This document shows positions 11,168 through 53,137 of a stretch of DNA of 64,000 nt, piece after piece. Under the pieces are notes generated by a model. It made no database searches. It was not told the DNA's origin and saw only the letters and a list, made by a program, of their open reading frames with translations. The stretch lies in the sequence record MK310183. One strand, given 5' to 3'. Numbering within the stretch: the stretch's first letter is position 1; the number at the start of each line of letters is the position of its first letter. The translations under genes and the position numbers were made by a program. This DNA comes from Phage NC-B.

Positions 11168-12136
11168 ATGGCTTTATTTGGTGGTGGGAGTAGCAAGACT
11201 ACTTCTAAAATGACAAGACCTGACTACATTCAATCCTATATTGACCAGTTGGTCAATCAGGTTAATAACACTAGTTCAGGTGATTATGTGTATCGAGAAA
11301 ATGTTGGACTTAATCAAAACCAACAAGAAGCTCTGAACAATCTATCACAATCTGGTGCATTAGGTGCACTTTCTTCTCAATACATGGATGCTGCTCAATC
11401 TGGCTTAGGTTATCTAGATAACGCATACTCTGGATATAACAACCTATCTAACTCTGGTCAAATCACTGGGGAACAGATTGGTGCTCTTGCAGGCCAGCTC
11501 TATGACGATGAGGCTGTGCAAGCAGCTATTGCAGCGAATAATGAACAAACCCAACAGAGTTTGGCTAGGAATGCACTTCCTCAAATCTCTCAGCAGTTTG
11601 CTGGTCAGCAAGGTTCTGGTGCACGTATGGCTAAATCTTTTGCTCAAGGTGATGCTCTGAACCAGATGCAGAACACAGCAACCAATATTACTAATAGTGC
11701 TTATGACTCCGCTCTAACTCAAGCACAGAACATTCTTTCTGGTAATAGACAAACACAAGCATCTGCTTTGGGTGGTTTATCTAACATTGGCTCCAATCTT
11801 GCTAATCTAGGAAACCAAGCTGGTCAGTTATCACAACAGCAAATGATGAATCAGTGGAATGCAGGACTGCAACAGCAGCAACAACAGCAGTCTGATTTGA
11901 ACAATGCTTATGAGAATGCTCAGAATGCCGCTAATTGGGGTTGGCAGGATATTAACAATCAACTAGGTGCTGCCGGGGTTCTTAATGGAGCTTTAGGGAC
12001 AACCACAACTACTAAAACATCTGGTGGTAGTGGAGGCTTCCTAGGTGGTGCTGCTAGCGGTGCTGCTGCTGGCTCAGCTTTTGGCCCTTGGGGTGCTTTA
12101 GCTGGCGGTGTTATCGGTGGCTTAGCTAGCTCTTAA
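11168..12136 (+). CDS. Q/N/G-rich internal virion protein (paralog 2)
   Basis: AGGAG RBS; N-terminus MALFGGGSSKTT and Q/N-rich body paralogous to 10106-11158. Confidence 0.45.
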   Translation: MALFGGGSSKTTSKMTRPDYIQSYIDQLVNQVNNTSSGDYVYRENVGLNQNQQEALNNLSQSGALGALSSQYMDAAQSGLGYLDNAYSGYNNLSNSGQITGEQIGALAGQLYDDEAVQAAIAANNEQTQQSLARNALPQISQQFAGQQGSGARMAKSFAQGDALNQMQNTATNITNSAYDSALTQAQNILSGNRQTQASALGGLSNIGSNLANLGNQAGQLSQQQMMNQWNAGLQQQQQQQSDLNNAYENAQNAANWGWQDINNQLGAAGVLNGALGTTTTTKTSGGSGGFLGGAASGAAAGSAFGPWGALAGGVIGGLASS

Positions 12137-26441: not shown

Positions 26442-28286
26442 TTAGTGAGTGTGATTCCAGTTTAACCCAATCTTACAGTCAGATGCCAGAGGGCATTCCA
26501 TTTTGAGATACTCACCTGCTTTACGAACACACTCTTCAGTGAGGGTACGAAGTTTGTTAACATCGTCACGATGTACAGTGAACTGGCCTTCATCATGCAT
26601 GTCAATAACCTTCGCACAACGAACACCATCACGCTCAATCCATTTATTAAGGAATAGCATTGCATACTTCATAACAATCGCCCCAGCGCTCTGTAAGAGA
26701 GTATTTAAGGCTTTATGAACCATAACCTTTCCAGTTGCATCTCTTCTCATTGTAATACGACGTCCATCCACACCGTAGATGTATCCACTTTGTGCTTTCT
26801 CTGTCATACGTTCAATAAGAATTGCAATACAAGGATTCTCTGCTAAGAATCTTGCCCTCATGACAGCTCCTTCATCAGAGCCACCGCCTACGATGCTTCC
26901 TAACTTAGCGTCACCAGCTCCGTAGTTGAATGCGTAGATAAATGTTTTAGCATTATCACGAGTAGGAAGGCCAGCAAGTTTTTGGTTATGTGAGTGAATA
27001 TCTCCTTCTAAAAGAATATCTCTGTACATAACAGCAGAAGCTAGACCGCGTTCAGCTTCTCGTTTCTTAGCCGGGTTGTTTTCTCGCTCTGCTTCAGCGA
27101 GCATCTCACGACATTCTTTAATAAGGTAGTGAGCTAGCATCCTCAGCTCAAGACCAGAGCCATCGTAACCTAAGAAGATTTCACGACCAGCAGGAACATA
27201 GAACTTATAGGCACCTACAGGTTTGTCTTTCTTGCCCGGTTTTCCCACTTCGTAGATAATGTTAGTACCCTTTCGTACGTAACACCCATCAGGGATATGG
27301 TTGGTAATGATGAAAGGATGGTTATGACTATCGTCTGAGGAATAGTCAGATTGAAAAAGACTGCGGCACTCGTGACCAAACAAACCGCGAGAAGGAATAT
27401 TAACAACAATGCGATGTTTAAAACGAAATGTCGGAGTAGCGCAGCTATTAGCTTCGGCGGACAACTTACCATCTTTACGTTCCTTGTCGATAAGCCCGCT
27501 AATCAAACCTAGCCTGTGAGCCGCTACAACGCGTCTCTTAAGCAAACTTCCTACACCCCCTAGCTCACCCCCAAGCCCTTCTTCAAGAGTCTCCTCAAGG
27601 TTTGTAGGGGCTGTAGGCCACTTGTTTGATGTAGCCAAAGCTTTTTTGATTTCATCAAAGGTTACAGGCTTCTTCCTATTAGGGTTAAGACCTAAACCGC
27701 TGACATAAGCTTTCATATAATTGACAGTGTGATAACGGAAGTGCTTATCCAAAAACCTTCGGATATCAGCATCTATCATCTCTGCTGTCTGTTTCTCTTT
27801 AGCGTTACCTCGAATCCAAGCAGAATACCATGCAGAGTATGTACCATACTTCTTCATAGCTTTACGAATTTCAAAAGTATTCCAAGGTTTCTTAGAATAA
27901 TTCCACTCTGGAGGTATAAAACCTTCATCCATCAAGGCTTCTTTAATACGTGCATCTTTTGATGGGTCAAAATCTACATACTCAACGCAAGTAAACGCCC
28001 CACCGATATCTTCTCTTTTAAGACCAACCCTATCGCAATAGAGCTGAGGCCACTTCTGTAAAGCACCTGACTTCTTAAAAGGCTTAGCATAAGTTGAACC
28101 ATCCACCCGCATTTTAGGGAGGAGAGGAATCAGTTCTTTATCAATATTGACAATAATCTCTTTGAGAAGGTGAACAAACCACCGAGCGTTTCTTCTGTTG
28201 AAGTTGACTCCATGCTTCGCTTGTTTTGAGATTATATCAGCGACTGTCATCTCCGTTATGAAAGGTAACTTATCAGGGTTATCCAT
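26442..28286 (-). CDS. DNA polymerase, family A (T7 gp5-like polymerase domain, no exonuclease domain)
   Basis: ATG at 28286 with AAGGAG RBS; motif A GYDGSGLELRMLAHY, motif B PTRDNAKTFIYAFNYGAG, motif C VIDMHDE. Confidence 0.8.
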   Translation of the reverse strand: MDNPDKLPFITEMTVADIISKQAKHGVNFNRRNARWFVHLLKEIIVNIDKELIPLLPKMRVDGSTYAKPFKKSGALQKWPQLYCDRVGLKREDIGGAFTCVEYVDFDPSKDARIKEALMDEGFIPPEWNYSKKPWNTFEIRKAMKKYGTYSAWYSAWIRGNAKEKQTAEMIDADIRRFLDKHFRYHTVNYMKAYVSGLGLNPNRKKPVTFDEIKKALATSNKWPTAPTNLEETLEEGLGGELGGVGSLLKRRVVAAHRLGLISGLIDKERKDGKLSAEANSCATPTFRFKHRIVVNIPSRGLFGHECRSLFQSDYSSDDSHNHPFIITNHIPDGCYVRKGTNIIYEVGKPGKKDKPVGAYKFYVPAGREIFLGYDGSGLELRMLAHYLIKECREMLAEAERENNPAKKREAERGLASAVMYRDILLEGDIHSHNQKLAGLPTRDNAKTFIYAFNYGAGDAKLGSIVGGGSDEGAVMRARFLAENPCIAILIERMTEKAQSGYIYGVDGRRITMRRDATGKVMVHKALNTLLQSAGAIVMKYAMLFLNKWIERDGVRCAKVIDMHDEGQFTVHRDDVNKLRTLTEECVRKAGEYLKMECPLASDCKIGLNWNHTH

Positions 28287-28302
28287 CACCCACTCCTTAT
28301 AG

Positions 28303-30825: not shown

Positions 30826-31020
30826 TTAGATAACCTTGTGCTCGTAGATGCTGGGGTTGAAATAATGCAACCAGTTTATATATTGTTTCTGTTCAAGGTA
30901 GTGTCTGCAATCATGACAAAAAGCATGACCCAAACCTGTTTCCTCGTTCAGCTTGAAGTTGATAAGAAGCTTCTGCTTTTGACAGAAGCTACATGCTTTA
31001 GTGGGCTTCACGTAGTGCAT
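30826..31020 (-). CDS. Putative zinc-ribbon protein
   Basis: Two CxxC pairs (CSFC, CHDC); start ambiguous, track ORF extends to 31134 overlapping thyX. Confidence 0.25.
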   Translation of the reverse strand: MHYVKPTKACSFCQKQKLLINFKLNEETGLGHAFCHDCRHYLEQKQYINWLHYFNPSIYEHKVI

Positions 31021-31648
31021 CCCATGAGATTGGGAAAAGTTTACGAAGCTCTTCATCAACAGTTGATGCGAACACTCGTACTTCATACTGAGCATGGTCT
31101 GACAGCCGCTGACGACATAACTCTGACCAACCATACAAAGAGCCTGTCCACACCCATTCAGTGATCATGCCCTGAGGCAATACAAATCGAGCTTGCTCTG
31201 GAGCAATAAACTTAATTAATTCATCATACGACTCAAGAGCTGTTTCATATGCCCGATTAATCAGAACTAGTGCAGAGTTTTGTGCTCCTGTGGTGAGGAG
31301 ATTCCCCGCACCTGCATGGAGGTCCGAAGGTCTTTCAAAAATCTCTTTAGGGATGAAGAGTTCAACTGCTCCATCTTTATACCGCCGGGACATTTCGTTC
31401 CACGAGAATCCAACTTGATGCTTGCCCAGCTGTCTCGCAATTGCGATTGGCGCTTTGCATCGGAAGCTAATTGTCGGATGACGGAATGGTGTGACATGCT
31501 TTTCTCTGGCAAGGAACTTGATAAGGCGTTCATCTCGTTCATTTAACTCTCCTTCACGAGTAACCCCAAAAGAAACTCGAGCTGCATTAACAACAGATTT
31601 ATCAGAACCCATTGCTTCGATTAGTGTTGCTTGTAATTGTTCATTCAT
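30998..31648 (-). CDS. thyX: Flavin-dependent thymidylate synthase (ThyX-like)
   Basis: AAGGAAGAG RBS; ThyX-type motif RQLGKHQVGFSWNEMSRRY. Confidence 0.6.
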   Translation of the reverse strand: MNEQLQATLIEAMGSDKSVVNAARVSFGVTREGELNERDERLIKFLAREKHVTPFRHPTISFRCKAPIAIARQLGKHQVGFSWNEMSRRYKDGAVELFIPKEIFERPSDLHAGAGNLLTTGAQNSALVLINRAYETALESYDELIKFIAPEQARFVLPQGMITEWVWTGSLYGWSELCRQRLSDHAQYEVRVFASTVDEELRKLFPISWDALREAH

Positions 31649-34172: not shown

Positions 34173-34706
34173 TTAGACACCCTTAGAAGCAACTACACCT
34201 TCGCTACCATTATAGCGACCCTTAACTGCATAGGAATGTTCACCAGCATGTGAATGCTCAAACATCACCATCTGACCAACACGCATACCAGCACGAACTC
34301 GTAAGCTGTGGTGCTTGGTTACGTTATGAAATTCGAATGTCAGCTTGCTGTTGTTAAACCCAGCGTCTGCCCAACCAGCATGTAAATGGTTCAGGCCACA
34401 ACGAGCCATCGAAGATCGCAAAACAAACAAACTGGAGATGTTATCTGGAAGGTTGAACTCTTCCATTGAGTGAGCCAAGAAGAATTGTCCCGGAGTGATG
34501 ATAATACCATCTTCAGGGATTTTTACTTCTTTCCACTTGAGGTTTTCTTTAGCATCAATGTCAACAATACCATCAGCCTGTTCTTCAACAAGGATAGTAT
34601 CACCAATGCGGATATCCACGCTAGCAGCGTTAACATATTTATGCTCCGCATCTAAAAAGCCATTATCAATAACGCTGTGTAATTCTTGAGAACCTAAAAG
34701 ACTCAT
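34173..34706 (-). CDS. dcd: dCTP deaminase / dUTPase-family enzyme
   Basis: Motifs ASVDIRIGD and GWADAGF consistent with dCTP deaminase family; ATGA overlap with upstream gene. Confidence 0.55.
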   Translation of the reverse strand: MSLLGSQELHSVIDNGFLDAEHKYVNAASVDIRIGDTILVEEQADGIVDIDAKENLKWKEVKIPEDGIIITPGQFFLAHSMEEFNLPDNISSLFVLRSSMARCGLNHLHAGWADAGFNNSKLTFEFHNVTKHHSLRVRAGMRVGQMVMFEHSHAGEHSYAVKGRYNGSEGVVASKGV

Positions 34707-36148
34707 GAGTTTCTGTTTCCTTGTACGGATGATGCCAAATTATTAATCATGTTGCGAGCTGTTTCACGAGATAGTGTAACACCTGCTAAGTTGTTACGAA
34801 GCTCACCAGATAGTTCACGAGCAGTAGCTCGAAGTTCTGCACCAAGTGCAGTGTCAGAGTGAGCCAGACCGTTACGACGACCAACAGGTCGAGGAGCTTC
34901 GTTAGCGTCATTAGCTAATGATGCAAAACCAATATGAGCAGCTTCACGAGCCGCTATAGCTGATACTCGATCTTCTGTAGGGGTTGGTAAATCACCAACG
35001 TCTACACGTTCGATATCACTAGCACGAATTCCACCAACAACAGATCTTACTGTTTCCCATGAACGACGAGAACGCTGCAAATCATCCATTGATGGAGAAG
35101 AAACAGGACGAGCAGTTCCCCCTGAGACATGCCATGTATGGTTGTGGGTGTCCGTCCCGGAAGAGCGTGAACTAACACGTAAGTCACCGGTAAAAGTTTC
35201 ACGAGGTGCCACTGTAGAAGGAGCTGCGAATCTTGCCTGTTGCCAAGAATCACGTCTGTTGGTTCCCGGAGTCCAAGGCTGCGTGATTGCTTCAGCACCT
35301 ATAGTGGTTAATCCGCTAGACCATTCTGTCTGTAGATTAACTTCCTCGTCCAGATAACTACGACCCCTTTCCTGAGGAATGTTTAATATAGTTTCCATCA
35401 TCTTCAGGGTATAATGACGACGCTGATTCTGATATAAATTTACACCAGCCATAGGTCCAACTAAATCACTAATCAGGTGAACTTCTGGCTCACCGAAAGC
35501 TCCCATTGCAAGGTGCATATATTCAGTAGAACTGCTATAAACTGCAACAGTTGCTTCAGGCCACTTCTTGTGAACATACTTCATTTCACGACTAGATACC
35601 ACAGGAATGTCACGAGTGTATGACATTGCAAACAAACCTTCGTTTGACACATACAGATTACCAAGAGTCATAAACCCTTGACAGATCATAGGGAAGCGAC
35701 GGCTTAAAGTGTCCATATCCAAAGGTAGATTAATCATCATCTGGATTTTAACTTGATCAATCTCAATTTCCAGAATCTCTTGGAAAGTGAAAAGCGCTTC
35801 AGCATAAGTTGTCCCGTTAACAGGTTGAACTAGTCGAGATGTTACTTGAAGTCCCTTACTCTCTGTCCAAGACAAGAAGTTGTCGAGGAACAGTGCAGCA
35901 TTGCCTACGTTAGCAGGGCTATTTTCCTGACGAGTGTTCCAACGAAGACCGCCTTGAACTAGGAAGATATCAACATCATTCGGAGTTCTATTTTGGAAGA
36001 ACGTATCACGGATAGCACCACCTGCAATAACAGGATAGATGCCATCAGGGACTACGTTATCTCTGATCAAATTACGAATCAGGTCAAGCCCTACACTGAG
36101 GGCTTCTCCTTCTTGAAGGTTCAATTCAGACAATGGAATCTTAATCAT
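34703..36148 (-). CDS. Pol-beta-superfamily nucleotidyltransferase (CCA-adding enzyme/poly(A) polymerase-like head) with Arg/Ser-rich low-complexity C-terminal half
   Basis: N-terminal VIAGGAIRD...PNDVDIF matches GG.VRD...D.DI head motif of class II tRNA nucleotidyltransferases; 481 aa. Confidence 0.45.
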   Translation of the reverse strand: MIKIPLSELNLQEGEALSVGLDLIRNLIRDNVVPDGIYPVIAGGAIRDTFFQNRTPNDVDIFLVQGGLRWNTRQENSPANVGNAALFLDNFLSWTESKGLQVTSRLVQPVNGTTYAEALFTFQEILEIEIDQVKIQMMINLPLDMDTLSRRFPMICQGFMTLGNLYVSNEGLFAMSYTRDIPVVSSREMKYVHKKWPEATVAVYSSSTEYMHLAMGAFGEPEVHLISDLVGPMAGVNLYQNQRRHYTLKMMETILNIPQERGRSYLDEEVNLQTEWSSGLTTIGAEAITQPWTPGTNRRDSWQQARFAAPSTVAPRETFTGDLRVSSRSSGTDTHNHTWHVSGGTARPVSSPSMDDLQRSRRSWETVRSVVGGIRASDIERVDVGDLPTPTEDRVSAIAAREAAHIGFASLANDANEAPRPVGRRNGLAHSDTALGAELRATARELSGELRNNLAGVTLSRETARNMINNLASSVQGNRNS

Positions 36149-36150
36149 TT

Positions 36151-36699
36151 CTACATTTTCCAGTTGAGAGATGGGGGATTTCTATAATCAAATCCTGCCA
36201 TTTGGCAAAGACACATGTAAACCTTAACTGTTAAGTTAACGTCTTGCTCACAATACGTGAACATGTCTTCAGTGAAAGCATCCCATGCTTCTTCCTGTTC
36301 ACCATAGTCACCCTTCAGCTCTCCCAGAAATTCGCCCCATTGCTTGAGGCCATGACCGCGAGGGCCATGTCTAGGGTCGCCTTTGGGGTATTCTGGACTG
36401 TCACCAATACGGTCAGGCTTGAGGTATCGACTCAGGCACAGGGTATCAAAGACATTAAAACGAAAAGGTATCACATGAGAGTAGAATTTAAAGAGAGCAC
36501 ATAAATCATAATCAATGATGTTATGTCCAATCACAACATCAGCCTCTTTGAGTTTATAAAGAGCATCCTCAATCTCATGTGGTCTAAACCCCCAACGCTC
36601 TCCTGAGAGAACATCAAAAATCCAAACACACCAGATATCAGAGACTTCTTCATACAACCCGTTGGCTTCTATGTCAAAAGCGTAAAGTTTCTTATCCAT
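36151..36699 (-). CDS. 3'-5' proofreading exonuclease, T7 DNA polymerase N-terminal domain-like, as a separate gene
   Basis: ATG at 36699 coupled (ATGGATAA) to EndoVII stop; Exo motifs [32 protein letters not shown] parallel T7 gp5 residues 1-190. Confidence 0.7.
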
Positions 36700-37135
36700 A
36701 AGATTTTTCCAGATACCGCAAGGCGGAGCGTATAATCTCAAGGTCATCTTTTAAATAACCTATCCCTGAATTGCACGATCTGCATAGGATTCCTCTAACA
36801 ACACCTGTTTCGTGACAATGGTCCACACAAGCAATTTTACTTATGTTTTTCATTTCATCCGAGATGCTTAACTCTTTGCCGCAAATAGCACAAGAGTTAT
36901 CCTGAGAACCCAATAGAGCTTTGACGTCATCAAGACTTAAACCATATTGCTTCAGTGAGTTTTTCCTAGAAGCTTTTCGGTGAATCTCTTTAACACCCTC
37001 TATATTGTGATATCTGAACATAGTCCTGTCATTCATGCAGACTTTACAAGAAGACCTATACCTGCCAGACTCAGACCTCTTATAGAAAGCGTCTAGGGGT
37101 TTTTCAACCCCACACTTACTACAGGTTTTTACCAA
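36692..37135 (-). CDS. Endonuclease VII-type (His-Me finger) junction-resolving nuclease
   Basis: CSKCG...C..C...CAICG...[17 protein letters not shown] motif pattern as in T4 gp49. Confidence 0.6.
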
Positions 37136-38954: not shown

Positions 38955-39161
38955 TTAGTAAAACGATCGTATTTCTTCCCACACATCATCTTGCAAGTTT
39001 CTAAAACCCTGCAAGGTTTGCTTTGTTCTGTGAATAAATTCTTCAGAGTGCTTATCAGGTGTGAGCATACTGACAAACTTTTCATAGCGATTAATCTTCC
39101 ACCGCATCTTCAAGTAGTCAGATTCCAGCTTTCTTAACTTCTGCCTGTCAGTTACTGTCAT
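38955..39161 (-). CDS. Hypothetical basic protein
   Basis: Internal ATG at 39161 chosen to limit overlap with upstream gene; start uncertain (track 39257). Confidence 0.3.
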   Translation of the reverse strand: MTVTDRQKLRKLESDYLKMRWKINRYEKFVSMLTPDKHSEEFIHRTKQTLQGFRNLQDDVWEEIRSFY

Positions 39162-39579
39162 CCTTCTCACCTGCCAGATATGCTGTCCAGTCACCAGATT
39201 CAACCAGAACATCTTGTTCTTCGTCGATGTGATAAATCCACGCTTCCACAGTTTCACCGCTGTCCAATAATACTGGAATCAGCGTACGCTTGTAAAAGGT
39301 GTATGGGTTATCATTACCACGATGACCTTCCAGACCGTCATACGGACCTTCCAGACCAGCTTGGGTTGTTTCAAAGACCTCTACACGAACAGGCTTACCG
39401 TTGCTGTCATGCTCCAGAGATACACTTGGGAAGTATGCTGTGCAATACTGATACAGGTTACAGTTGTTTACTGTCCACCCTTCACCAATAGACACACCAC
39501 CTGCGCGAGCATTGATAGCGTGGTTGTGTTGACCTTTACGAAGAGAACCATACGTTGCAACTAATACTTTATCAGACAT
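39148..39579 (-). CDS. Gamma-glutamyl cyclotransferase-like (AIG2/GGCT family) protein
   Basis: AAAGGT RBS; N-terminal VATYGSLRKG (YGSL motif); 143 aa. Confidence 0.55.
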   Translation of the reverse strand: MSDKVLVATYGSLRKGQHNHAINARAGGVSIGEGWTVNNCNLYQYCTAYFPSVSLEHDSNGKPVRVEVFETTQAGLEGPYDGLEGHRGNDNPYTFYKRTLIPVLLDSGETVEAWIYHIDEEQDVLVESGDWTAYLAGEKDDSN

Positions 39580-39583
39580 TACA

Positions 39584-39781
39584 TTACCTTTTGTTTAAAA
39601 TTTCTTTTGTACAAGAAGTCCCGTTACACACGAGAACTGTTTGAGTTATAGAATCGACAACTGTTACATGGCTGCCGCATTGAGTTATGATTTGACCTCT
39701 CCCTGAATCTTTAGAGATGCATTCATCAGCGGCGATTGCTGACACACTGAATAAGGAGAGGAAAAATAGAATCTTTTTCAT
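39584..39781 (-). CDS. Small secreted Cys-rich protein
   Basis: Signal peptide MKKILFFLSLFSVSAIA then 6 Cys in 45 residues. Confidence 0.4.
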   Translation of the reverse strand: MKKILFFLSLFSVSAIAADECISKDSGRGQIITQCGSHVTVVDSITQTVLVCNGTSCTKEILNKR

Positions 39782-39787
39782 TGCTGC

Positions 39788-40204
39788 TTACCAATCATGT
39801 TGGAAACCAGAATATCCAGAGAAGATGATTGATCGGATTGGCTTTTCAGGGAATTCTTCAAAACATCCCTTAATGGCTTTCTTGGTTTCATCAGACATTG
39901 ACTCTTTTTCGCCAAACCAGTATTCTTCAAAAATATCAGAGAAGATATAAGTTCGGTATCTTTCCAAGTCATAAAAACCTTCCACTGCACCTGTAACAGC
40001 TCGACTGATCGTACTAGAAGCTACAGGAAATAAATCACTGTGCTCCATAAATAAACACCAACGATCAAAGAGTGGAATCTCTTCATCTTTCAGAAGACTC
40101 TCTAATTCTTCCTTTGCCTCTTTCTTATTCTTCTCAAAGAGGTTTTTGGAATATTCTACATCTAAGATACGACTCTTAAACATATCCAGTTTATTGTCAA
40201 CCAT
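39788..40204 (-). CDS. Hypothetical protein
   Basis: GGAGG RBS, ATG; 138 aa. Confidence 0.5.
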   Translation of the reverse strand: MVDNKLDMFKSRILDVEYSKNLFEKNKKEAKEELESLLKDEEIPLFDRWCLFMEHSDLFPVASSTISRAVTGAVEGFYDLERYRTYIFSDIFEEYWFGEKESMSDETKKAIKGCFEEFPEKPIRSIIFSGYSGFQHDW

Positions 40205-40260
40205 TTACAACCTCCAGTTAAATTCGAACTAGCCTCCTCTTTCGAAGAGGCTAAAGCAAA

Positions 40261-40446
40261 TTATTCTACTTCGAAGTGTTTGATCACACCAGTTAGTACA
40301 TCAGATTGGAATGTACCCACTAGCTCTGCGCCTCGGAAGAAATTGACATTTGTTCCTAGTGTTTCAAAGCGCTCTGCTTGAATGTCCAGAGATTGAATAT
40401 TCCCTTCTGATGTTACTGTACGAAACATGATTGTATATTTATTCAT
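40261..40446 (-). CDS. Hypothetical protein
   Basis: ATGA overlap with upstream stop; 61 aa. Confidence 0.35.
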   Translation of the reverse strand: MNKYTIMFRTVTSEGNIQSLDIQAERFETLGTNVNFFRGAELVGTFQSDVLTGVIKHFEVE

Positions 40447-40685
40447 AGACTTGTTACTCCCTTATCTGCTTGTGCAATAGCAAAAATTCGCTCTACACAT
40501 TCCATTGAGTCTTTATCACCACGCTTTAAGAAGGTGACGATAGCAGAGAATTGATTACCAATCATTCTCTTATTGGTGATACCAAACTCTTCACAGAGTT
40601 GGTTAATCATTTTACGAGAGCCTACAATCAGAGGCTCTTTTTCTTCAGTCATTCCACGGCTGATCAAATCTTCGATAGACAACAT
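40443..40685 (-). CDS. Hypothetical protein
   Basis: AAGGA RBS, ATG; 80 aa. Confidence 0.4.
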   Translation of the reverse strand: MLSIEDLISRGMTEEKEPLIVGSRKMINQLCEEFGITNKRMIGNQFSAIVTFLKRGDKDSMECVERIFAIAQADKGVTSL

Positions 40686-40711
40686 TACAAATTCCTTTTT
40701 GTTTAATTTAA

Positions 40712-41947
40712 TTATAGAGTTACTGCTACTTCGCTACCTTCAACATTGACAGACTCTAACTTGCGAGGGTTATGAATCTGGACTGGATTGACCGGAACGT
40801 TCCAACCACTGCGGTAGAAGTTACGACCATCACAGAACAGGATGACATTGGCAGACATTGCATTCGGTTGCAGGTTGTTGTGGACATGACGGATATTTGC
40901 AATCCAGTAGCCACGAGACAAAGTGTAGCCAGTAGGTGCATTACGAATAGTTTGAGTATTCATCTGACCTTCCAGTTGCATTTCTTCAGGAACCATATCA
41001 ACTGAATCAATCGGCTGTGCTACTTGTCCTTCCAGTGCAAAGTTTTCATCATCAGCACTTTCACTGTCATCAACCAACTCACCATCTCCGTCTTCAATCG
41101 GAGTCTGGTAAACCACTTTATACTGAGGAGTATAGAGAGGGTTCTGAGCTTTAACAAACTCAAGAATGTTATGACGGTAGGTATCCAGAGTTGTACCAGT
41201 CAGGCCCGGTGCTGTATTAACTTCCAGTACCCACGCTTCTTGACCTTTGGTGATAATATCAACTGCACCGAAATCCAGACCCATTGATTCAACAGCTTTC
41301 ACTGCATTGATCAGAGAGGCGTCATTCGGAGCATCTGTGAAGGAGCTTGAGTAAACCCAGCCAGTGTGGTGATTACGAATATCTTCACGATAGTTAGGGT
41401 CTTCGCGATAACCATTGCGACGAATCTTCTTCTGAACATAGGTGATTACACCTTTGAACACATGGACACGCCACTCACGACGTGGGCCTTGAATGCCTTT
41501 AGTGTACAGTTCAGCTCGACCAAGACCATCACCCGGTTCTACAACAACAATGCCCGAACCAGAGTGACCAGTCAGCTCATGGCGCTCATACACAATATTA
41601 CCAGTGTTTGACCACTCTTGAGCAGTCTCTTGAGCATCTGTGTATTCCACAGTTTTAACACCTGCTTGGTCCATCACGCTGAAAGCACGACGTTTGTTCG
41701 CTGCCATATGTAAGGCTGCGGTACGGTTAAGGACGGTTGAAGAACCAAAGAATGATTCAGGATAGCGACGGTTCCCGTAGTTAACAACCACATCACCTTC
41801 ACGAGAACGCCAGCGGCTATTCTCTGAAAGAAGACCCATCACGTTAGCATTGATGCGTTCATCACGGATAGTATCACTGATAGCAGATACTAGAGCGTTA
41901 ACAGAATCAGACGGGCCATACGGAAGAACACGGATACGAGTAGTCAT
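40712..41947 (-). CDS. ATP-grasp fold ligase
   Basis: Motifs EWRVHVFKGVITYV and AWVLEVNTAPGL match ATP-grasp (RimK/glutathione-synthetase-like) signatures; 411 aa. Confidence 0.5.
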   Translation of the reverse strand: MTTRIRVLPYGPSDSVNALVSAISDTIRDERINANVMGLLSENSRWRSREGDVVVNYGNRRYPESFFGSSTVLNRTAALHMAANKRRAFSVMDQAGVKTVEYTDAQETAQEWSNTGNIVYERHELTGHSGSGIVVVEPGDGLGRAELYTKGIQGPRREWRVHVFKGVITYVQKKIRRNGYREDPNYREDIRNHHTGWVYSSSFTDAPNDASLINAVKAVESMGLDFGAVDIITKGQEAWVLEVNTAPGLTGTTLDTYRHNILEFVKAQNPLYTPQYKVVYQTPIEDGDGELVDDSESADDENFALEGQVAQPIDSVDMVPEEMQLEGQMNTQTIRNAPTGYTLSRGYWIANIRHVHNNLQPNAMSANVILFCDGRNFYRSGWNVPVNPVQIHNPRKLESVNVEGSEVAVTL

Positions 41948-41950
41948 TTT

Positions 41951-42172
41951 TTAGATACCTTTTAGTTTAAGAATTTCGTTACGACAGGATTGAATTTTAG
42001 CTTCGATTGCCCAATACTCAGCGAACATTTCGTCTTCTTGGGCATCGCTTGGAGAGTCGATTAAGTTAAAAGCAAACGGATACAGCTTTCGCTGCTCCGT
42101 TACCAGTTGTTGAAGTCGGAGTTGTTGATACTCCAGCATTGTCAGGTGAGGCTTAGCTCCCCTGTTTGACAT
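41951..42172 (-). CDS. Hypothetical protein
   Basis: ATG at 42172 (track start is TTG at 42181); 73 aa. Confidence 0.35.
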   Translation of the reverse strand: MSNRGAKPHLTMLEYQQLRLQQLVTEQRKLYPFAFNLIDSPSDAQEDEMFAEYWAIEAKIQSCRNEILKLKGI

Positions 42173-42386
42173 GAGGCTCAACTTTAATCCCCTTCATTTT
42201 AACATAGTCAGCCAACACGTTATTAATAACGGTTGGAAAAGGGATTTCTACTGGAGAGTCAACCAGCTTCCCAATACCTTCTTGCATCCACTTCTGGATT
42301 GCTCGGAGGTTATCACATCCTGTGCTTGTCATCGGAATACGGCGGGTAGTTACCACGTTATCCAACATCAGTTTACGAACTTCCAT
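42153..42386 (-). CDS. Hypothetical protein
   Basis: AAGAGG RBS, ATG; 77 aa. Confidence 0.4.
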   Translation of the reverse strand: MEVRKLMLDNVVTTRRIPMTSTGCDNLRAIQKWMQEGIGKLVDSPVEIPFPTVINNVLADYVKMKGIKVEPHVKQGS

Positions 42387-42397
42387 AACTATACCTC

Positions 42398-44401
42398 TTA
42401 GTGTTTACCTTTACAGTAATCTGAATTACAGATCACCCTGTTTTCTTTGTTCAGTGAGCAAGTTTCTGCATCACGCCACGGAATTTGTTTATAACAGACT
42501 GCACAAAACCCAATTGAAGTCCAGAGGGCTTTTGTAAACTCAGCTGTTCGTTGTCCATCGTAACTGACAACTGTTTTTCGGAGAGAGGTTGACTTTTCTG
42601 GAAATGTCTCCGCTTTCTCAGCGGGTACCTCCTTTGGGGCATTCTTTGGACCATAAACAGAGATGGCATAGGTATCACCACCACGTTTTTCCAAATACGA
42701 ATTAGGAACATCTGCAAGTGTGATATCCCCTGAACGTTTTGCTGAGCTAACCATTACAATCATACGGCTAAGCATACGTTCATCAACACGAACAGCTACT
42801 TCAGGACGACGTGGGTTGGTTGTGTCCACTGCTTTAGTCCAAATATAACCCTCAGACAGCGTAACATTCTTTACTTTGTCTTTGATTTCTTTGGAGCAGA
42901 TATAACAAACGTCTTCACCACGAAGTTTACTCATTTCGTTGTCAAACTCGAAATCAGTCTTGACTTCACCACAGATAGCACATACACCCAAAGGCACATC
43001 TTCTTCCTCTTCAGAGGTTTTAGATAACGCTTCGAAGCATTCTGGATGCCAGTATGCCTGATAAGCAAACACAGCCTTACGAGCATCTTTCCAGTCAATG
43101 TGCTTATCACAACCACCACAGTCACCATGAGAGTGAGACTCCCAGAACTTACGAGTGACTTCTACACCATTCTTAGTGATGAAGGAGTCCTCTGCATCAA
43201 AAGGGATATCATCATCAAAATCAGCAGTAGTGCTTTGAGGCTCCTTATCTGTAGCATCAACAAACAGCCCTGAAGTTAGTACGAGGCGAATCATACTGTC
43301 CACTTCGGAGATACAAGCAATCGTCCCGCGATATACTACCTTTGGGTTTTCAAGAGCCTTAAGATATTCATCTTTGGCTACGTTGTGAACATCCCCTTCG
43401 ACATACTCTTGGGCTTTATCATCGTAGATGTAACCAACCATCTTACCACGATCTGTGTTGTTATAAGCATGGAACTCGTGAGGAATAATATCCACACGAC
43501 CATCACGACGATAAGGAAGACCACGATCGGCAGCCAGTTTGTTCTGGTCTTCAATCGCTTTACGACGACGAATGTCTCCGCTTGTCACGCCGGGCTTGTC
43601 GTCTTTGTTTCCGTAAATGTCGCTTGTGCTGCTGCTTGATTTGTTTGTCTGTTGGTTCTGATATAGAGAGGAGTTCGAGTAATAGCCGCCCCAGCGACTC
43701 GTTATCGTAAAAACCGGAAGCTTGTGCTCCACCTCTTGAACCAGAGTCATACGACTGTTAGACACATCAAAGATATACTCAGTTCCCACTTTACACTCGA
43801 AGTGGTCATTGATACGGTTCTTATGGGACTTAGAACGCTCTAAAATCCACATAAGCATAGCTTCTTCAGAAGCCCCAAACCAATCTAAACCACAACGGGC
43901 TAGGTGGAAAGGACGCTCATCATTACGGATAATGTGAAGCGTGTTGTCTTTAGCATCATGCCAAATCAAAGTGAATGCACCATCCAGTTTTTGGATAGTC
44001 TCTGCTGCTCCAATGGTGTTAATTGAGTGGCAGATGTTTTCACTATCAACTTCGAAACGTTTACTGTCAGGAAGGAGATCTTGATCTAACAGGGTTCCAT
44101 TATGAACCAGAGTGATATCACCGTGAGTAAATGGGTGAGCGTTTCGAGCATTGACAGCCCCACGAGTGGCATGTCGGCTATGACCAACAATCCACGAAGG
44201 AGGAACTACGTAGTTCGTAAGTCCTTTGGTAATATTCTTATATTCTGTCTGGAGCATAAAAGCGTAAGAAGGAAGAGCTTCTTTGTAAGAGAAGACTTGC
44301 TTTTCACCTTTACGCTGACCAAACACACCAGTTGAGTGCTGTCCACGGAAAACACCAGCATACAGAAGTTGGTTGAAAATATCCAAATCTGTTGAGGTCA
44401 T
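42398..44401 (-). CDS. Ntn-hydrolase / class-II glutamine amidotransferase-like protein with C-terminal Cys-rich zinc-ribbon region
   Basis: N-terminal region has GAT-II-like HSRHATRG...NAHPF...LVHNGTL but begins MTST (no Cys2); C-terminal half has several CxxC pairs; 667 aa. Confidence 0.45.
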   Translation of the reverse strand: MTSTDLDIFNQLLYAGVFRGQHSTGVFGQRKGEKQVFSYKEALPSYAFMLQTEYKNITKGLTNYVVPPSWIVGHSRHATRGAVNARNAHPFTHGDITLVHNGTLLDQDLLPDSKRFEVDSENICHSINTIGAAETIQKLDGAFTLIWHDAKDNTLHIIRNDERPFHLARCGLDWFGASEEAMLMWILERSKSHKNRINDHFECKVGTEYIFDVSNSRMTLVQEVEHKLPVFTITSRWGGYYSNSSLYQNQQTNKSSSSTSDIYGNKDDKPGVTSGDIRRRKAIEDQNKLAADRGLPYRRDGRVDIIPHEFHAYNNTDRGKMVGYIYDDKAQEYVEGDVHNVAKDEYLKALENPKVVYRGTIACISEVDSMIRLVLTSGLFVDATDKEPQSTTADFDDDIPFDAEDSFITKNGVEVTRKFWESHSHGDCGGCDKHIDWKDARKAVFAYQAYWHPECFEALSKTSEEEEDVPLGVCAICGEVKTDFEFDNEMSKLRGEDVCYICSKEIKDKVKNVTLSEGYIWTKAVDTTNPRRPEVAVRVDERMLSRMIVMVSSAKRSGDITLADVPNSYLEKRGGDTYAISVYGPKNAPKEVPAEKAETFPEKSTSLRKTVVSYDGQRTAEFTKALWTSIGFCAVCYKQIPWRDAETCSLNKENRVICNSDYCKGKH

Positions 44402-44508
44402 GTTGCCGCCAGCTAATACGATACCACAAATTTTCTAATCCACCTGAAGGGTAAACCCTTTCATCTAATTAACCTTTAAATGCGCCCTTTATCAGAGCGC
44501 CCATTGTG

Positions 44509-45609
44509 TTACAGCAGTCGTTCTAACTGCATTTCCAGATGATCTGGAATATAACCAGTGACATTATCATCACTACTGCCTGATTCACGCATCAATGCAA
44601 ACATGTGACGAATCTCACCAACCGTTGCGGTTCGTGTATTCTCAATCTGGTTAGAGTAATGAGATAAGATTTCTTCATAGACACGGTTAGCATTACCACG
44701 AACATATCCCAAGAAACCATAGAAGTCATTCATGTCACGAAGATTAATCAAGATTTCTCCATCAGAACCTGTCTGATGTACACGAACTCGACCGACCAAA
44801 GTTACAGATCGCTCACGACAGAACAGAATATCTCGAGCAAGACGATACCCTTCAGTGAGATCACTATCTCTTGGGGTGTAGTCTAGAGGTAGATGTTGAA
44901 TCATAGGAGCGAAGCGCAGCTCATTCAACTTCTCAACATAAGCTTCATTGTCTAAATCTGCATATTCAACAGCCAGTTTCTTGAGAACCAAGAAACGATT
45001 GACCAGATTTAGCAGCTGACTCTTTTTCCACTTCGGCTCTGAGATACGGAACTCAACAGAACCAAACTGAGAGAGAGGTAACAGATTAAGGGAGGTGTAC
45101 TTGTCCCAGCTATTAACAAGAGTACGGAAGAAATCTTCCCCATCTCGGTTGAACGCTGATGAAGCATTCATAACTTGAGCTTGAACAACAGCAAAAGCTG
45201 GGCAGAAGTTACTACGGTAACGATGATATCCAGAACATTTGAACATCATCTTTTCATAGAACGTCCACCCAAGAATAACTTTCTTAAGGATATTACTATC
45301 AGCGTCCCGCATATCCATATGAACGTGAGTGGAGCAGCGCCAAGTTCCCTCGGCTCCAGAATCCTGTACCGCTTCACTCAGATTGTTAATAGCACGAAGT
45401 AATTCTTCACCGTTGTAAGGTCGTGAACAAACTAACTCACAACCATCACGAAGAGAGCCGTCTTCAGTACAAACCCACATATCGACGTCAATGTCAGTCG
45501 TACCTTCAACCTCTAACTCAATACCAACACCACACTGAAAGGCAATACTTGGATGCGGTTCAGATAAGCGAGGGTTACGGTATCCAAAAACTTGTGCTAC
45601 GGTTGTCAT
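44509..45609 (-). CDS. Amidoligase-family (glutamine synthetase-like carboxylate-amine ligase) protein
   Basis: GGTGGA RBS; motifs GIELEVEG and RCSTHVHMD fit the amidoligase pattern; 366 aa. Confidence 0.45.
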   Translation of the reverse strand: MTTVAQVFGYRNPRLSEPHPSIAFQCGVGIELEVEGTTDIDVDMWVCTEDGSLRDGCELVCSRPYNGEELLRAINNLSEAVQDSGAEGTWRCSTHVHMDMRDADSNILKKVILGWTFYEKMMFKCSGYHRYRSNFCPAFAVVQAQVMNASSAFNRDGEDFFRTLVNSWDKYTSLNLLPLSQFGSVEFRISEPKWKKSQLLNLVNRFLVLKKLAVEYADLDNEAYVEKLNELRFAPMIQHLPLDYTPRDSDLTEGYRLARDILFCRERSVTLVGRVRVHQTGSDGEILINLRDMNDFYGFLGYVRGNANRVYEEILSHYSNQIENTRTATVGEIRHMFALMRESGSSDDNVTGYIPDHLEMQLERLL

Positions 45610-46232
45610 AATGATTCCACCAACTCTACATTATATGATGACAGGTCTGAAGAAATATGCTTGAACTTCTCCAGAAGGTTTAAAGATTGACGACCATTGT
45701 CGCCATAACCAGCTTCAAGAAGCACGTTTCCAACGTAAGCCCCTTTGTAATAAACTTTTCCATCGACAGGATTGATATAGATGAAACGAGTAACCAACCC
45801 TTCAAACTCTGGATTAAACAGGTTGTACACCAAATCACCCGGAATCGAACGTCCGAGAGAAGGTGGAGCACCACGAAGTTTATTCCCCATCAAGCCTTTA
45901 GCTCGCTGACGAACAGGGTTAATATGGGTCCAGCTCACCATGTTATTACCATGCTGAAGGTATCCTACATCTGGAGACTCCAGAATGAGGTTGTGATCAA
46001 ACACTGGGATATTACTAACAATCTGACGTTCAAACTGACCTTCAGAGTTTTTAGTCCAGCGTTCCGCCTCAAACACTAAAGACATTTCAGCGTCGTGTGA
46101 GTAGTCGTCGATATCAAAGTTACCTTGCTGACGAACATCAAGCACATATAGAGGGAGGTTTTTACCATCAGGTGATCGCTGAGCAATCCATGTTCCACAA
46201 TAATAGTGTTGAAAATCTCTTAACAGGCTCAC
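45606..46232 (-). CDS. Hypothetical protein in amidoligase cluster
   Basis: GTG start 5 nt after AAGGTGA RBS; ATGA coupling to downstream gene; 208 aa. Confidence 0.45.
   Translation of the reverse strand: MSLLRDFQHYYCGTWIAQRSPDGKNLPLYVLDVRQQGNFDIDDYSHDAEMSLVFEAERWTKNSEGQFERQIVSNIPVFDHNLILESPDVGYLQHGNNMVSWTHINPVRQRAKGLMGNKLRGAPPSLGRSIPGDLVYNLFNPEFEGLVTRFIYINPVDGKVYYKGAYVGNVLLEAGYGDNGRQSLNLLEKFKHISSDLSSYNVELVESL
45625..45633 (-). promoter_or_regulatory. Candidate promoter element (variant TAATGTAGA)
   Basis: Minus-strand TATAATGTAGA ~20 nt upstream of amidoligase ATG. Confidence 0.25.
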
Positions 46233-46241
46233 AATATCACC

Positions 46242-47048
46242 TTATACAATCTGGAGTTTAGAGGAGAATTTATCCGCTTCTTTAACATCGTTACTGTTGA
46301 TGATGTTGTGAAGCTTTTCAATTGGAAGGCGAGAGTGAAGTGACATCAATACTTCTATATCACAACCCTGAACAACCTTATCCACTTGCTCATAAACAAA
46401 CTTGCGAGTGGACTTATCACCAATCCAGAAGTTAGAAAGAGAACGATATTCAATACCGTAATCTTTGTAGCGAATGGCAGAAGCCTTTCCGTACAACTCT
46501 TTACGACGAGTGTCTTTATCCATGATCACAGCTGGCAAGGACAGGAAGTAATCACACAACACACCCAACATCATTTGAGTTTGTCGAGTAATCTCTAAAG
46601 TCCCGGAGACACCAAGGTGCACATGACCCCCAGCAGTACGCAAACCTTTATCAGTTGCGACCGGTGAAGGGTTCTTTTGTCCAGTGAAGGCATTGAAATC
46701 AGGAGTACAACCAAATACAAAGGCTGACGGATGGAAAGATTCAAGCTCTTCTGAAGTGAACACATGAGAGCTAATCCCAAGTGCTGCCTCCATGCCACGT
46801 TCATTGAGAACTTTGTTAGTCAGATCAATACCGCGCTGAATGTTATCATCAAACGCTTCAAACCCTTTCTGTGGGTTAATATCAAACTCGGCCAGAACGT
46901 TGTCTTCTTGAAGACGAACATCAGGAGCCAGATCAATTTTATTATCTTTAGAACAGCCCAGCTTACCAGCCACAGAGGTGATAATACCGGAAGCAGTACG
47001 AACAAACATTTCAGGGTCAGAGCCAATAAGGAAAGCGCGCTTAGTCAT
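46242..47048 (-). CDS. Second amidoligase-like protein
   Basis: ATG at 47048 coupled (ATGACTAA); motifs GSDPEMFV and GGHVHLGV; 268 aa. Confidence 0.4.
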   Translation of the reverse strand: MTKRAFLIGSDPEMFVRTASGIITSVAGKLGCSKDNKIDLAPDVRLQEDNVLAEFDINPQKGFEAFDDNIQRGIDLTNKVLNERGMEAALGISSHVFTSEELESFHPSAFVFGCTPDFNAFTGQKNPSPVATDKGLRTAGGHVHLGVSGTLEITRQTQMMLGVLCDYFLSLPAVIMDKDTRRKELYGKASAIRYKDYGIEYRSLSNFWIGDKSTRKFVYEQVDKVVQGCDIEVLMSLHSRLPIEKLHNIINSNDVKEADKFSSKLQIV

Positions 47049-47991
47049 TGTAATACTCCACGAGTTCATCAAAAAGGGAAACAACACGAGCACCAGCTTC
47101 TTCTGGTGTCATTGAGGAAGGTACTGCTTGCATCAGACGTTCGATAAAACTTCGAACAGTAATTCTGTCCATACGCTGATCTAATACTTCTCGCTTGTGA
47201 CCTGCACAAGTTGACCAGAGACGTAACCACTCACTCATACTCTCATAATGGTCAGGGTCTTGGTCACGACGACGTGCCATACGACGGAGAACTCCATCAT
47301 TATGGTTTCGTACATAACCATCTCGGTTGTCATCAACACCGAATACATTCTGAACCCATACGTTTTCAGAAAATTCATCAGTGGTGCAAATTAATGGCAG
47401 AAATGCAATTGCACTCATGTCGCCATCAAAATAAGTCGCTGCTGACTCATCGGTTGAGTCTACGTCATTACTATAACACCAGCGACCAAAGAAGTTACGA
47501 CTTAAACCAGCTAAGCGTAGAGCTAAACCGATTCGTTGTCGCTTAAGCAACTCTTCCTTGTCTTGTACGCCTTCCTGAAGGAACTCCATTCCATTAAAAT
47601 CACCATCCAAATAGCTACGGATGGTCATTAGTCCAGTAAACACCTTGTCTGCTGGATGGTTTCGAAGGTTCACGGCAATGGAGTTCACCGAAGTGACAGA
47701 GAACATATCTTTATAGCAAGACATTGAGTTAAAAATATCTGTTGCTTCAACTAAAGCTCTTTCGATATCTTTAGCTGGCACGCCATAAAAATTGTGAGGC
47801 CAGAAGTTAATAACTTCAATTTCTGAAGTTCTATCACGAAGGCTTGTTCGGTTACGACTTTCACCGTTAATGTCTGTAACAGAATACATGTGCATGCAGT
47901 TAAAAGTACCAAAGCAAGCTCTTCCTTTGAACACTGACTCACCGAAATCCTCTGCCGGTGTTACCGGAGCAATCGATGCGGAGATTGACAT
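47041..47991 (-). CDS. Hypothetical protein in amidoligase cluster
   Basis: AGAGG RBS, ATG; 316 aa. Confidence 0.5.
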   Translation of the reverse strand: MSISASIAPVTPAEDFGESVFKGRACFGTFNCMHMYSVTDINGESRNRTSLRDRTSEIEVINFWPHNFYGVPAKDIERALVEATDIFNSMSCYKDMFSVTSVNSIAVNLRNHPADKVFTGLMTIRSYLDGDFNGMEFLQEGVQDKEELLKRQRIGLALRLAGLSRNFFGRWCYSNDVDSTDESAATYFDGDMSAIAFLPLICTTDEFSENVWVQNVFGVDDNRDGYVRNHNDGVLRRMARRRDQDPDHYESMSEWLRLWSTCAGHKREVLDQRMDRITVRSFIERLMQAVPSSMTPEEAGARVVSLFDELVEYYND

Positions 47992-53061: not shown

Positions 53062-53137
53062 TGGTGCACCCTACAGGACTCGAACCTGTAACCAACGACT
53101 TAGAAGGTCGCTGCTCTGTCCATTGAGCTAAGGGTGC
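53062..53137 (-). tRNA. tRNA-Arg (anticodon UCU)
   Basis: 76-nt cloverleaf on minus strand: acceptor GCACCCT/AGGGTGC, D-stem GCTC/GAGC, anticodon loop CTTCTAA, T-arm ACAGG-TTCGAGT-CCTGT, 3' CCA encoded. Confidence 0.8.

Follow-up and report, generated by a model that had tools for sequence, protein, structure and literature searches.

Class II ancestry and a lysine-free disordered tail in a nucleotidyltransferase encoded among the replication genes of phiEco32-like Escherichia coli phages

Phage NC-B (sequence record MK310183) encodes, within the 64,000-nucleotide stretch of DNA analysed here (the window), a 481-residue protein in which a compact nucleotidyltransferase domain is followed by a long disordered tail devoid of lysine. 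The gene is real, codes for a putative enzyme conserved in phiEco32-like E. coli phages, and is homologous to phiEco32 gp73. Judged on sequence, the protein shares the ancestry and the nucleotide-binding core of the class II nucleotidyltransferases, to which E. coli poly(A) polymerase I (PAP I) and the CCA-adding enzymes belong, and fails the features that define either a CCA-adding enzyme or PAP I. We lean, tentatively and with rather less than full conviction, towards an active enzyme that adds nucleotides to 3' ends without a template and has a minimal class II domain at its core, with the disordered tail acting as a tether in place of the RNA-binding domains. A preliminary description of this DNA, made from its letters alone, had proposed a CCA-adding-enzyme-like nucleotidyltransferase with an Arg/Ser-rich disordered tail, coupled by an ATGA overlap to the dCTP deaminase gene (dcd) and flanked on its other side by the polymerase exonuclease gene. 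The reading frame (minus strand, ATG start), the two neighbours and the stop-start overlap were all confirmed (Table 1); the functional part of the label was not, for the reasons given below.

Evidence for the fold comes from structure and from profile-profile comparison, as the sequence libraries are nearly silent on this protein. Pfam returned no match at E<=1 for the window protein, PolyA_pol included, which is the search that the preliminary description had put forward as a check, and a phiEco32-type homologue scored 19.1 bits against PF01743, under the cut-off of 23. NCBIfam gave no match either, its CCA equivalogs and PcnB models included. None of the marks of a bacterial poly(A) polymerase I was found, be it the models TIGR01942/NF008634, the PolyA_pol_RNAbd domain or the Arg-rich C-terminus domain, and a phmmer search of PDB sequences recovered only a 21-residue GGAVRD...DVD segment of CCA-adding enzymes at E~0.3. 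An AlphaFold2 run with a 37-sequence alignment gave a per-residue confidence (pLDDT) of 70-93 across most of residues 1-235 and of about 25 for residues 268-481, with a predicted template-modelling score (pTM) of 0.70 for the trimmed model. With Foldseek against the PDB, class II enzymes that add CCA, CC or A make up all of the top 30 matches and 36 of the 38 at E<=1e-3, the best of them reaching E 6e-5. Direct hhalign comparison of the family with class II scored 93%; global alignment being unreliable past motif A, the comparison was instead chained through small phage nucleotidyltransferases, which match the family at 99.6% (E 5.7e-24) and class II at 97.9% (E 6e-13). PHROG 1614, a profile of head-only phage nucleotidyltransferases, matches the protein at 5.4e-6. 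The domain carries the alpha/beta head fold with the hG[GS] and [DE]x[DE] motifs that mark the Pol-beta superfamily, and on the model residues 1 to about 235 are predicted with certainty to adopt a Pol-beta-type nucleotidyltransferase fold. It is closest to the class II enzymes, an assignment made from two things together, the leading structural match and the GGxxRD motif specific to class II, and the homology proposed in the preliminary description is thereby upheld. The domain evolves slowly, with dN/dS of 0.076 for residues 1-205 and 0.094 for residues 206-285.

Residue-level comparisons were made in a combined alignment of 28 family representatives (<=50% identity) and 17 fringe sequences, the small relatives beyond the family, read beside the chained hhalign alignments. 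Motif A, already picked out in the preliminary description, comprises GGAIRD at residues 43-48 and DVDIF at 58-62 (DVD at 58-60), and aligns with GGAVRD...DVD of the CCA-adding enzymes; G43, G44, R47, D48, D58 and D60 are invariant in family and fringe alike, one fringe D48A excepted. The neck helix (R187..Y191..K194-K195-W196) is kept as well, with Y191 and K195 invariant and K/R194 nearly so, and further along W276, S277 and L280 are nearly invariant across genera. Other parts of the class II active site are altered. Position 136 is Gln in 28/28 family and 16/17 fringe sequences, and the chained alignments pair it with the third-acid D/E of class II, a mapping inferred from profile alignment and secondary-structure order. 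On the adjacent strand an acidic residue, D/E124, is present throughout the family (28/28) and missing from the fringe; it might compensate for Gln136. At position 153 the family has Pro (28/28) and the fringe Asp (17/17), the latter aligned with the Asp of the class II 'RRD' of motif B, the two Arg of which are retained in neither set. The family-specific D/E124 and the change from Asp to Pro at 153 together look like the remodelling of an active site.

In class II structures motif B is the sensor of the ribose 2'-OH, and motif D (EDxxR) provides the amino-acid template for C and A. No equivalent of motif D was found in the family: residues 180-184, where EDPLR would be expected, are D-I-P-V-V in the window protein and variable elsewhere, and the templating position is without an Arg. 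The domains with which class II enzymes bind tRNA (helical neck, body and tail) are not present in the AlphaFold2 models or the alignments, where a short alpha/beta extension and the disordered tail stand instead. Together with a phage tRNA gene whose 3' CCA is encoded in the genome, these losses remove the grounds for calling the protein functionally CCA-adding-enzyme-like.

Set beside the class II tRNA nucleotidyltransferases and PAP I that furnish its top structural matches (PF01743 head; PDB 3AQL, 3H37, 1OU5, 1MIV), the window protein has in common the Pol-beta-type head, GGxxRD...DxD and a basic helix resembling 'LRxxRFxxRY', and differs in its missing motifs and domains, in the Gln at the third-acid position and in falling under every Pfam and NCBIfam threshold. 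E. coli PAP I also has an Arg-rich disordered end, but a short and basic one, unlike the lysine-free polyampholyte of about 200 aa seen here. The head-only proteins of ~170-290 aa (PHROG 1614; DU_RP_I, PP47, phiAS7, LKD16) share motif A, the invariant Gln and the neck helix, likewise lack motif D and the body and tail domains, and lie in podophage DNA-metabolism regions; they differ in keeping the motif B Asp (F-D-[WFI]-x-[IV]-C), in lacking D/E124, in their higher lysine content, and in being compact (~200 aa), without a long disordered tail, and patchy in distribution rather than core genes. A stand-alone head-domain protein of Streptococcus pneumoniae (PDB 2LA3) is bacterial, 191 aa long and without a disordered tail, and its similarity to the window protein is weaker than that of full-length class II enzymes. 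Homologues in Kuravirus and Nieuwekanaalvirus have an orthologous N-terminal domain at 33-42% identity, the identical gene position, a long disordered C-terminal region and the same avoidance of lysine, but the Suseptimavirus-type tail shows no detectable similarity to theirs.

The tail (residues 286-481) consists of 12.2% A, 12.2% R, 11.2% S, 8.7% T and 7.7% G, and contains 24 Arg and not one Lys (P~4e-6 against the 6.1% K of this phage's proteome). With a net charge of +2 it is a polyampholyte, not a basic tail. The R/S/A/T-rich composition and the disorder given in the preliminary description hold good, whereas its 'low complexity' is only mild, with a sequence entropy of 3.82 vs 4.12 bits and no tandem repeats found in the tail. 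The pattern of substitution indicates that the tail is translated and under purifying selection: dN/dS is 0.31, all indels among 9 relatives are in frame, and GC3 is 0.245, a typical coding value in this phage. Its final ~50 residues are nearly invariant within the genus (9 relatives), with low-confidence predicted helices at 434-454 and 461-479. Matches to the tail at E<=1 are confined to 22 Suseptimavirus-type records, and it could not be aligned to the Kuravirus or Nieuwekanaalvirus tails, which are homologous to each other (E 8e-31). The lysine-free, Arg-rich composition nonetheless persists between genera whose tails are unalignable: over 23 family representatives, C-terminal regions have 0.52% K and 8.7% R and N-terminal domains 2.6% K. 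Over the whole protein the family has 1.5% K, where the small relatives have 6.6% and the proteome 6.1%; given the normal lysine content of those small relatives, avoidance of lysine is a trait that arose within the family and is under selection as composition.

Across the region DNA identity is 88-92% to ECBP2, Bas86-88, IME267, SU7 and related Gordonclarkvirinae E. coli podophages, placing the window phage with the Suseptimavirus/ECBP2-like type. The protein is 85-93% identical to its counterparts in 22 Suseptimavirus-type phages, and residues 1-474 match positions 1-456 of the 457 in PHROG 12715 ("nucleotidyltransferase") at E 1.8e-166. With the full-length protein conserved in 22 phage records and the N-terminal domain in about 97, the feature goes beyond chance. 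Because a word-indexed protein search reached the same genus alone, a multi-genus profile and then an exhaustive search were used to go further; even so, only 31 proteins at E<1e-10 were found among 1.84 billion cluster representatives. IMG/VR contributed 6 loci. Beyond the family lies a fringe of ~200-aa proteins in T7-like Autographiviridae (Ralstonia, Pectobacterium, Aeromonas, Vibrio and phiKMV-like Pseudomonas phages), Bruynogheviruses and Vibrio phage ICP1. In the literature these small proteins are named putative tRNA nucleotidyltransferases, with their role left open. Of ~550 Autographiviridae, about 97 are reported to carry such a gene, with primase/helicase on one side of it and DNA polymerase on the other. 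The gene and its 'nucleotidyltransferase' annotation are already known in public phage genomes, and its oddity has been remarked in print, both of which the preliminary description missed. New here are: 1) the finding that the protein does not group with CCA-adding enzymes by their defining features; 2) the D153P / D/E124 / Q136 pattern; 3) the link to the small enzymes of T7-like phages; 4) the analysis of selection on the tail; and 5) the family-wide avoidance of lysine.

The position of the gene is constant, always between the polymerase exonuclease subunit and dCTP deaminase genes. A shared order of GGACT, primase/helicase, polymerase exonuclease subunit, nucleotidyltransferase, dCTP deaminase, small open reading frames (ORFs), Dps-like protein, thioredoxin and the flavin-dependent thymidylate synthase ThyX is seen in phiEco32, Bas87, KBNP1711, Bas93 and metagenomic members at only 27-33% identity, and from primase/helicase to dCTP deaminase the junctions are overlapping or near-abutting. 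In the window 2 nt separate the end of the exonuclease subunit gene from the nucleotidyltransferase start codon, and in some distant relatives these two genes overlap by 4 nt.

On the reading that we lean towards, the GG-x-RD and DxD residues and the basic neck helix (Y191, K194, K195) would bind NTP-Mg, and the nucleotide would be transferred to the 3'-OH of a nucleic-acid end. By analogy with the family RNA would be the most probable substrate; to our knowledge all characterised class II enzymes act on RNA ends, which makes RNA the default acceptor. Such an enzyme would be unable to run the protein-templated, tRNA-measuring synthesis of CCA, since motif D, the Arg-Arg-Asp of motif B and the body and tail domains have gone. 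The ~200-residue tail, dotted with Arg and Trp, would replace the body and tail domains as a tether, holding either the substrate or a partner protein from the replication and nucleotide-metabolism machinery, with whose genes this one would be co-transcribed and tightly coupled. The analysis itself establishes the homology and fold, the conserved motif A, the loss of motifs B and D and of the body and tail domains, the predicted disorder of the tail and the selection on it, and the strict synteny; we infer that the protein is catalytic, that its acceptor is a 3' end, that this end belongs to RNA and not DNA, and that the tail is a tether. Several points weigh against it. The invariant Gln at the third catalytic acid position may mean that catalysis is altered or lost; the net charge of the tail is low for a simple nucleic-acid-binding role; neither the family nor the clade of small relatives has a member with a measured activity; and the loss of the motif B Asp, together with the position in a DNA-replication operon, is equally compatible with a DNA or dNTP substrate.

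That last point leads to the alternative of an enzyme acting on DNA, as a dNTP-using terminal transferase or a DNA-modifying nucleotidyltransferase that works with the T7-type replisome and may aid the restriction resistance of the Gordonclarkvirinae. The fixed place of the gene inside the replication module suits this idea, as do the settings of its small homologues, which Ralstonia T7-like phages encode between their primase/helicase and DNA polymerase genes and Bruynogheviruses in a group with polymerase, SSB and exonuclease genes, and the change of the motif B Asp to Pro is peculiar to this family. We know, however, of no class II enzyme with DNA as its substrate, and the T7 gene 4-5 region also houses accessory and anti-defence genes, among them a toxin-antitoxin inhibitor, so that position is weak evidence. 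As to tRNA in replication of this type, its 3'-ACCA end reportedly matches a T7 primase product. Host tRNA can serve as primer in T7-type replication, the finding for which Zhu et al. (2012) are cited in later papers. The BASEL paper describes the Gordonclarkvirinae as remarkably restriction-resistant without a known modification pathway, and offers the pair of dCTP deaminase and nucleotidyltransferase as a possible explanation, via dU-containing DNA. That route (suggested in PMC11990801) is unlikely given a phage-encoded ThyX; with the gene for this enzyme in the window, and a dNMP kinase also encoded by the phage, the deaminase is more simply explained as part of an ordinary dTTP supply. These genomes have moreover been sequenced routinely, and no report of a modified base was found in the literature searched. 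All told, we regard a role on DNA as unlikely.

A more elaborate version of it supposes a full switch to DNA chemistry, in which the enzyme, having lost the ribose-sensing Asp of motif B, would use dNTPs, and its tail would tether it to the T7-type replisome, there to tail or covalently modify phage DNA or to create or repair ...CCA-type primer ends, and so to act as the missing restriction-resistance factor. We consider this version very improbable.

Another alternative is that the protein is not a polymerase at all, and instead nucleotidylylates a protein or small molecule, makes or binds a signalling nucleotide, or serves as a nucleotide-binding pseudoenzyme, for example in counter-defence. 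An invariant Gln at the third-acid position would fit, and the family-specific avoidance of lysine over the whole protein could reflect the avoidance of self-modification. The GGxxRD signature with its neck helix is, by contrast, specific to class II polynucleotide enzymes; the gene is a core and strictly syntenic member of a replication operon, not part of a variable accessory island; and there is no positive evidence for counter-defence, no defence-related library such as PADLOC having been run. We think this unlikely too.

Repair of tRNA 3' ends, whether of the whole CCA or of the terminal A, is a further alternative, and would keep tRNAs chargeable in the infected cell or counter host toxins that damage the acceptor end. 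The closest solved relatives are tRNA nucleotidyltransferases, homologues are so labelled in several databases and papers, the small relatives turn up here and there among T7-like phages (about 97 of 550) in the manner of accessory genes, and the host Cca matters for phage yield, at least as Morse and Deutscher (1976) are cited in PMC7693777. Missing, however, are motif D, the Arg-Arg-Asp of motif B (P153 in 28/28 family sequences) and the domains that bind the tRNA elbow. There is no match to the NCBIfam CCA equivalogs or to PolyA_pol, the tRNA-Arg gene of the phage already carries its own CCA, and the E. coli host has a cca gene. A true tRNA repair enzyme is on this evidence decidedly doubtful. 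As for the tail being an artefact (the result of a wrong join or a frameshift in the ORF, a gene of its own, or sequence that is not translated), its very low pLDDT, its unusual composition and a predicted terminator annotated within the gene in the deposited 4E8 genome might suggest as much, but the idea is essentially excluded by an ORF intact in 9/9 relatives with in-frame indels only, by the dN/dS and GC3 given above, by long C-terminal extensions in other genera (426-456 aa in total), by the full-length span of PHROG 12715, and by scans of the region that gave no significant excess of promoters or terminators and no Rfam match.

Should the protein prove active, it would represent a nucleotidyltransferase of class II descent that functions despite having lost the motifs and domains to which substrate choice in that family is ascribed, with an intrinsically disordered tail serving in place of structured RNA-binding domains. 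All of a phage subfamily has the gene in its core set, and this subfamily features in therapy studies and is notable for its restriction resistance. The gene also belongs to a wider clade of small, putative "tRNA nucleotidyltransferases" carried by about one in five T7-like phages. Identifying its substrate would settle the role of a widespread phage gene and could explain restriction resistance; the avoidance of lysine across unalignable tails, for its part, is a clear-cut example, open to testing, of selection acting on the composition of a disordered region in a viral protein.

Table 1. Coordinates in the window of the nucleotidyltransferase gene, its parts and other genes mentioned in the text.
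Feature	Position	Strand	Remarks
Complete nucleotidyltransferase coding sequence	34703..36148	minus	From the ORF list; 481 aa + TGA stop; phiEco32 gp73 homologue
ATGA overlap	34703..34706	minus	Nucleotidyltransferase TGA shares bases with dCTP deaminase ATG; context ...CTC ATGA GTC...; read directly from the sequence
dCTP deaminase gene (downstream neighbour)	34173..34706	minus	Pfam DCD 6.5e-35; synteny in every family-bearing phage
DNA polymerase A 3'-5' exonuclease subunit gene (upstream neighbour)	36151..36747	minus	PHROG 38876/403 'DNA polymerase exonuclease subunit'
Folded N-terminal catalytic domain, residues 1-~235	35444..36148	minus	Predicted Pol-beta-type nucleotidyltransferase head, first neck helix and small alpha/beta extension
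Motif A GGAIRD...DVDIF, residues 43-62	35963..36022	minus	Class II nucleotide- and metal-binding signature
Gln136 on strand 'KIQMM'	35741..35743	minus	At position of class II third acidic residue, by profile alignment
Degenerate motif B F152-P153-M-I-C156	35681..35695	minus	Class II counterpart RRD-F-T-I-N
Neck helix S186-REMKYVHKKWP-197	35558..35593	minus	Counterpart of class II 'LRxxRFxxRY' helix
Low-confidence linker, residues 236-285	35294..35443	minus	pLDDT 25-53; ends in conserved W276-S-x-G-L motif
Disordered, lysine-free, Arg/Ser/Ala/Thr-rich tail, residues 286-481	34706..35293	minus	pLDDT ~25; 0 K, 24 R
Conserved C-terminal tail module, residues 434-481	34706..34849	minus	Nearly invariant in 9 relatives
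Family-A DNA polymerase, polymerase-domain gene	26442-28289	minus	
ThyX gene	30998-31648	minus	Pfam Thy1 1e-42
Endonuclease VII/HNH-type gene	36692-37135	minus	Pfam Endonuclease_7 7e-21
GGACT	39148-39579	minus	Upstream cluster
DUF7020	39788-40204	minus	Upstream cluster
RimK-like ATP-grasp	40712-41947	minus	Upstream cluster; 2.7% K
Class II glutamine amidotransferase	42398-44401	minus	Upstream cluster
Amidoligase_2	44509-45609	minus	Upstream cluster
phiEco32-type COOH-NH2 ligase	46242-47093	minus	Upstream cluster
phrog_13102 protein	47041-47991	minus	2.2% K
tRNA-Arg(UCU)	53062-53137	minus	3' CCA genome-encoded
'Membrane protein' (phrog_1265)	8255-9286	plus	0.6% K
'DNA ejection protein' (phrog_4287)	10106-11158	plus	2.6% K
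'DNA ejection protein' (phrog_4287)	11168-12136	plus	1.2% K

The family-A DNA polymerase of this phage is split, its polymerase-domain and exonuclease subunit genes lying about 8 kb apart, with the nucleotidyltransferase, dCTP deaminase, Dps-like, thioredoxin, ThyX and PhoH genes between them. Between the primase/helicase and exonuclease subunit genes is an endonuclease VII/HNH-type gene whose ORF overlaps the listed start of the exonuclease ORF; the true start of the latter is probably an internal Met (MDKKLYAF...). As the endonuclease gene is not at this position in phiEco32, Bas87, KBNP1711 or Bas93, it is probably a homing endonuclease, and an insertion of an endonuclease at this locus was remarked upon by the BASEL authors too. 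The tRNA-Arg(UCU) gene is the only tRNA gene found, and among the Arg codons of the nucleotidyltransferase gene CGT accounts for 25/39 and AGA for only 6.

Upstream of the replication genes, within 39148-47991 on the minus strand, a six-gene cluster co-occurs with the nucleotidyltransferase family even in distant relatives; one cited proposal for its function is cell-wall modification. Two proteins of this upstream stretch, the ATP-grasp and phrog_13102 proteins, are themselves poor in lysine (2.7% and 2.2% K). A tie between lysine avoidance in the nucleotidyltransferase and the amidoligase, ATP-grasp and GGACT genes of the cluster was considered and set aside, given the cell wall as the proposed target and a normal lysine content in the rest of the proteome. 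Elsewhere in the window lysine is also very scarce in three structural-module proteins, compared with the 6.1% K of the proteome: a 'membrane protein' (0.6%) and a pair of 'DNA ejection proteins' that are paralogues (2.6% and 1.2%). The idea, drawn from such ejection proteins, that the nucleotidyltransferase might be a virion or ejection protein was also rejected: in SU10 the ejection proteins are gp20-24, and the SU10 homologue of the nucleotidyltransferase was detected by mass spectrometry through one peptide, from a crude concentrate.

Among the small head-only nucleotidyltransferases, some end in acidic/aromatic tips (...EDLLPF, ...KTEEVF, ...YIQVPF), which we take to resemble the partner-docking C-terminal tails of SSB, T7 gp2.5 and gp4; the C-terminus of the window protein, ...VQGNRNS, is unlike them. 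In the Pseudomonas phage PhiCHU (4905-5885) a 326-aa ORF begins with the nucleotidyltransferase domain and runs into the endonuclease gene next to it, a Bruynoghevirus pattern, and the record annotates a 'putative nickase recognition site' nearby. Many Kuravirus homologues carry a precomputed Pfam label, PF26128.2, which the local Pfam copy did not reproduce and which the cluster of the window protein itself does not carry. Lastly, a protein identical to that of the window is on record as a 'Shigella sonnei hypothetical protein'; the 76,497-bp contig that encodes it is evidently an entire phage genome submitted as part of a bacterial assembly.

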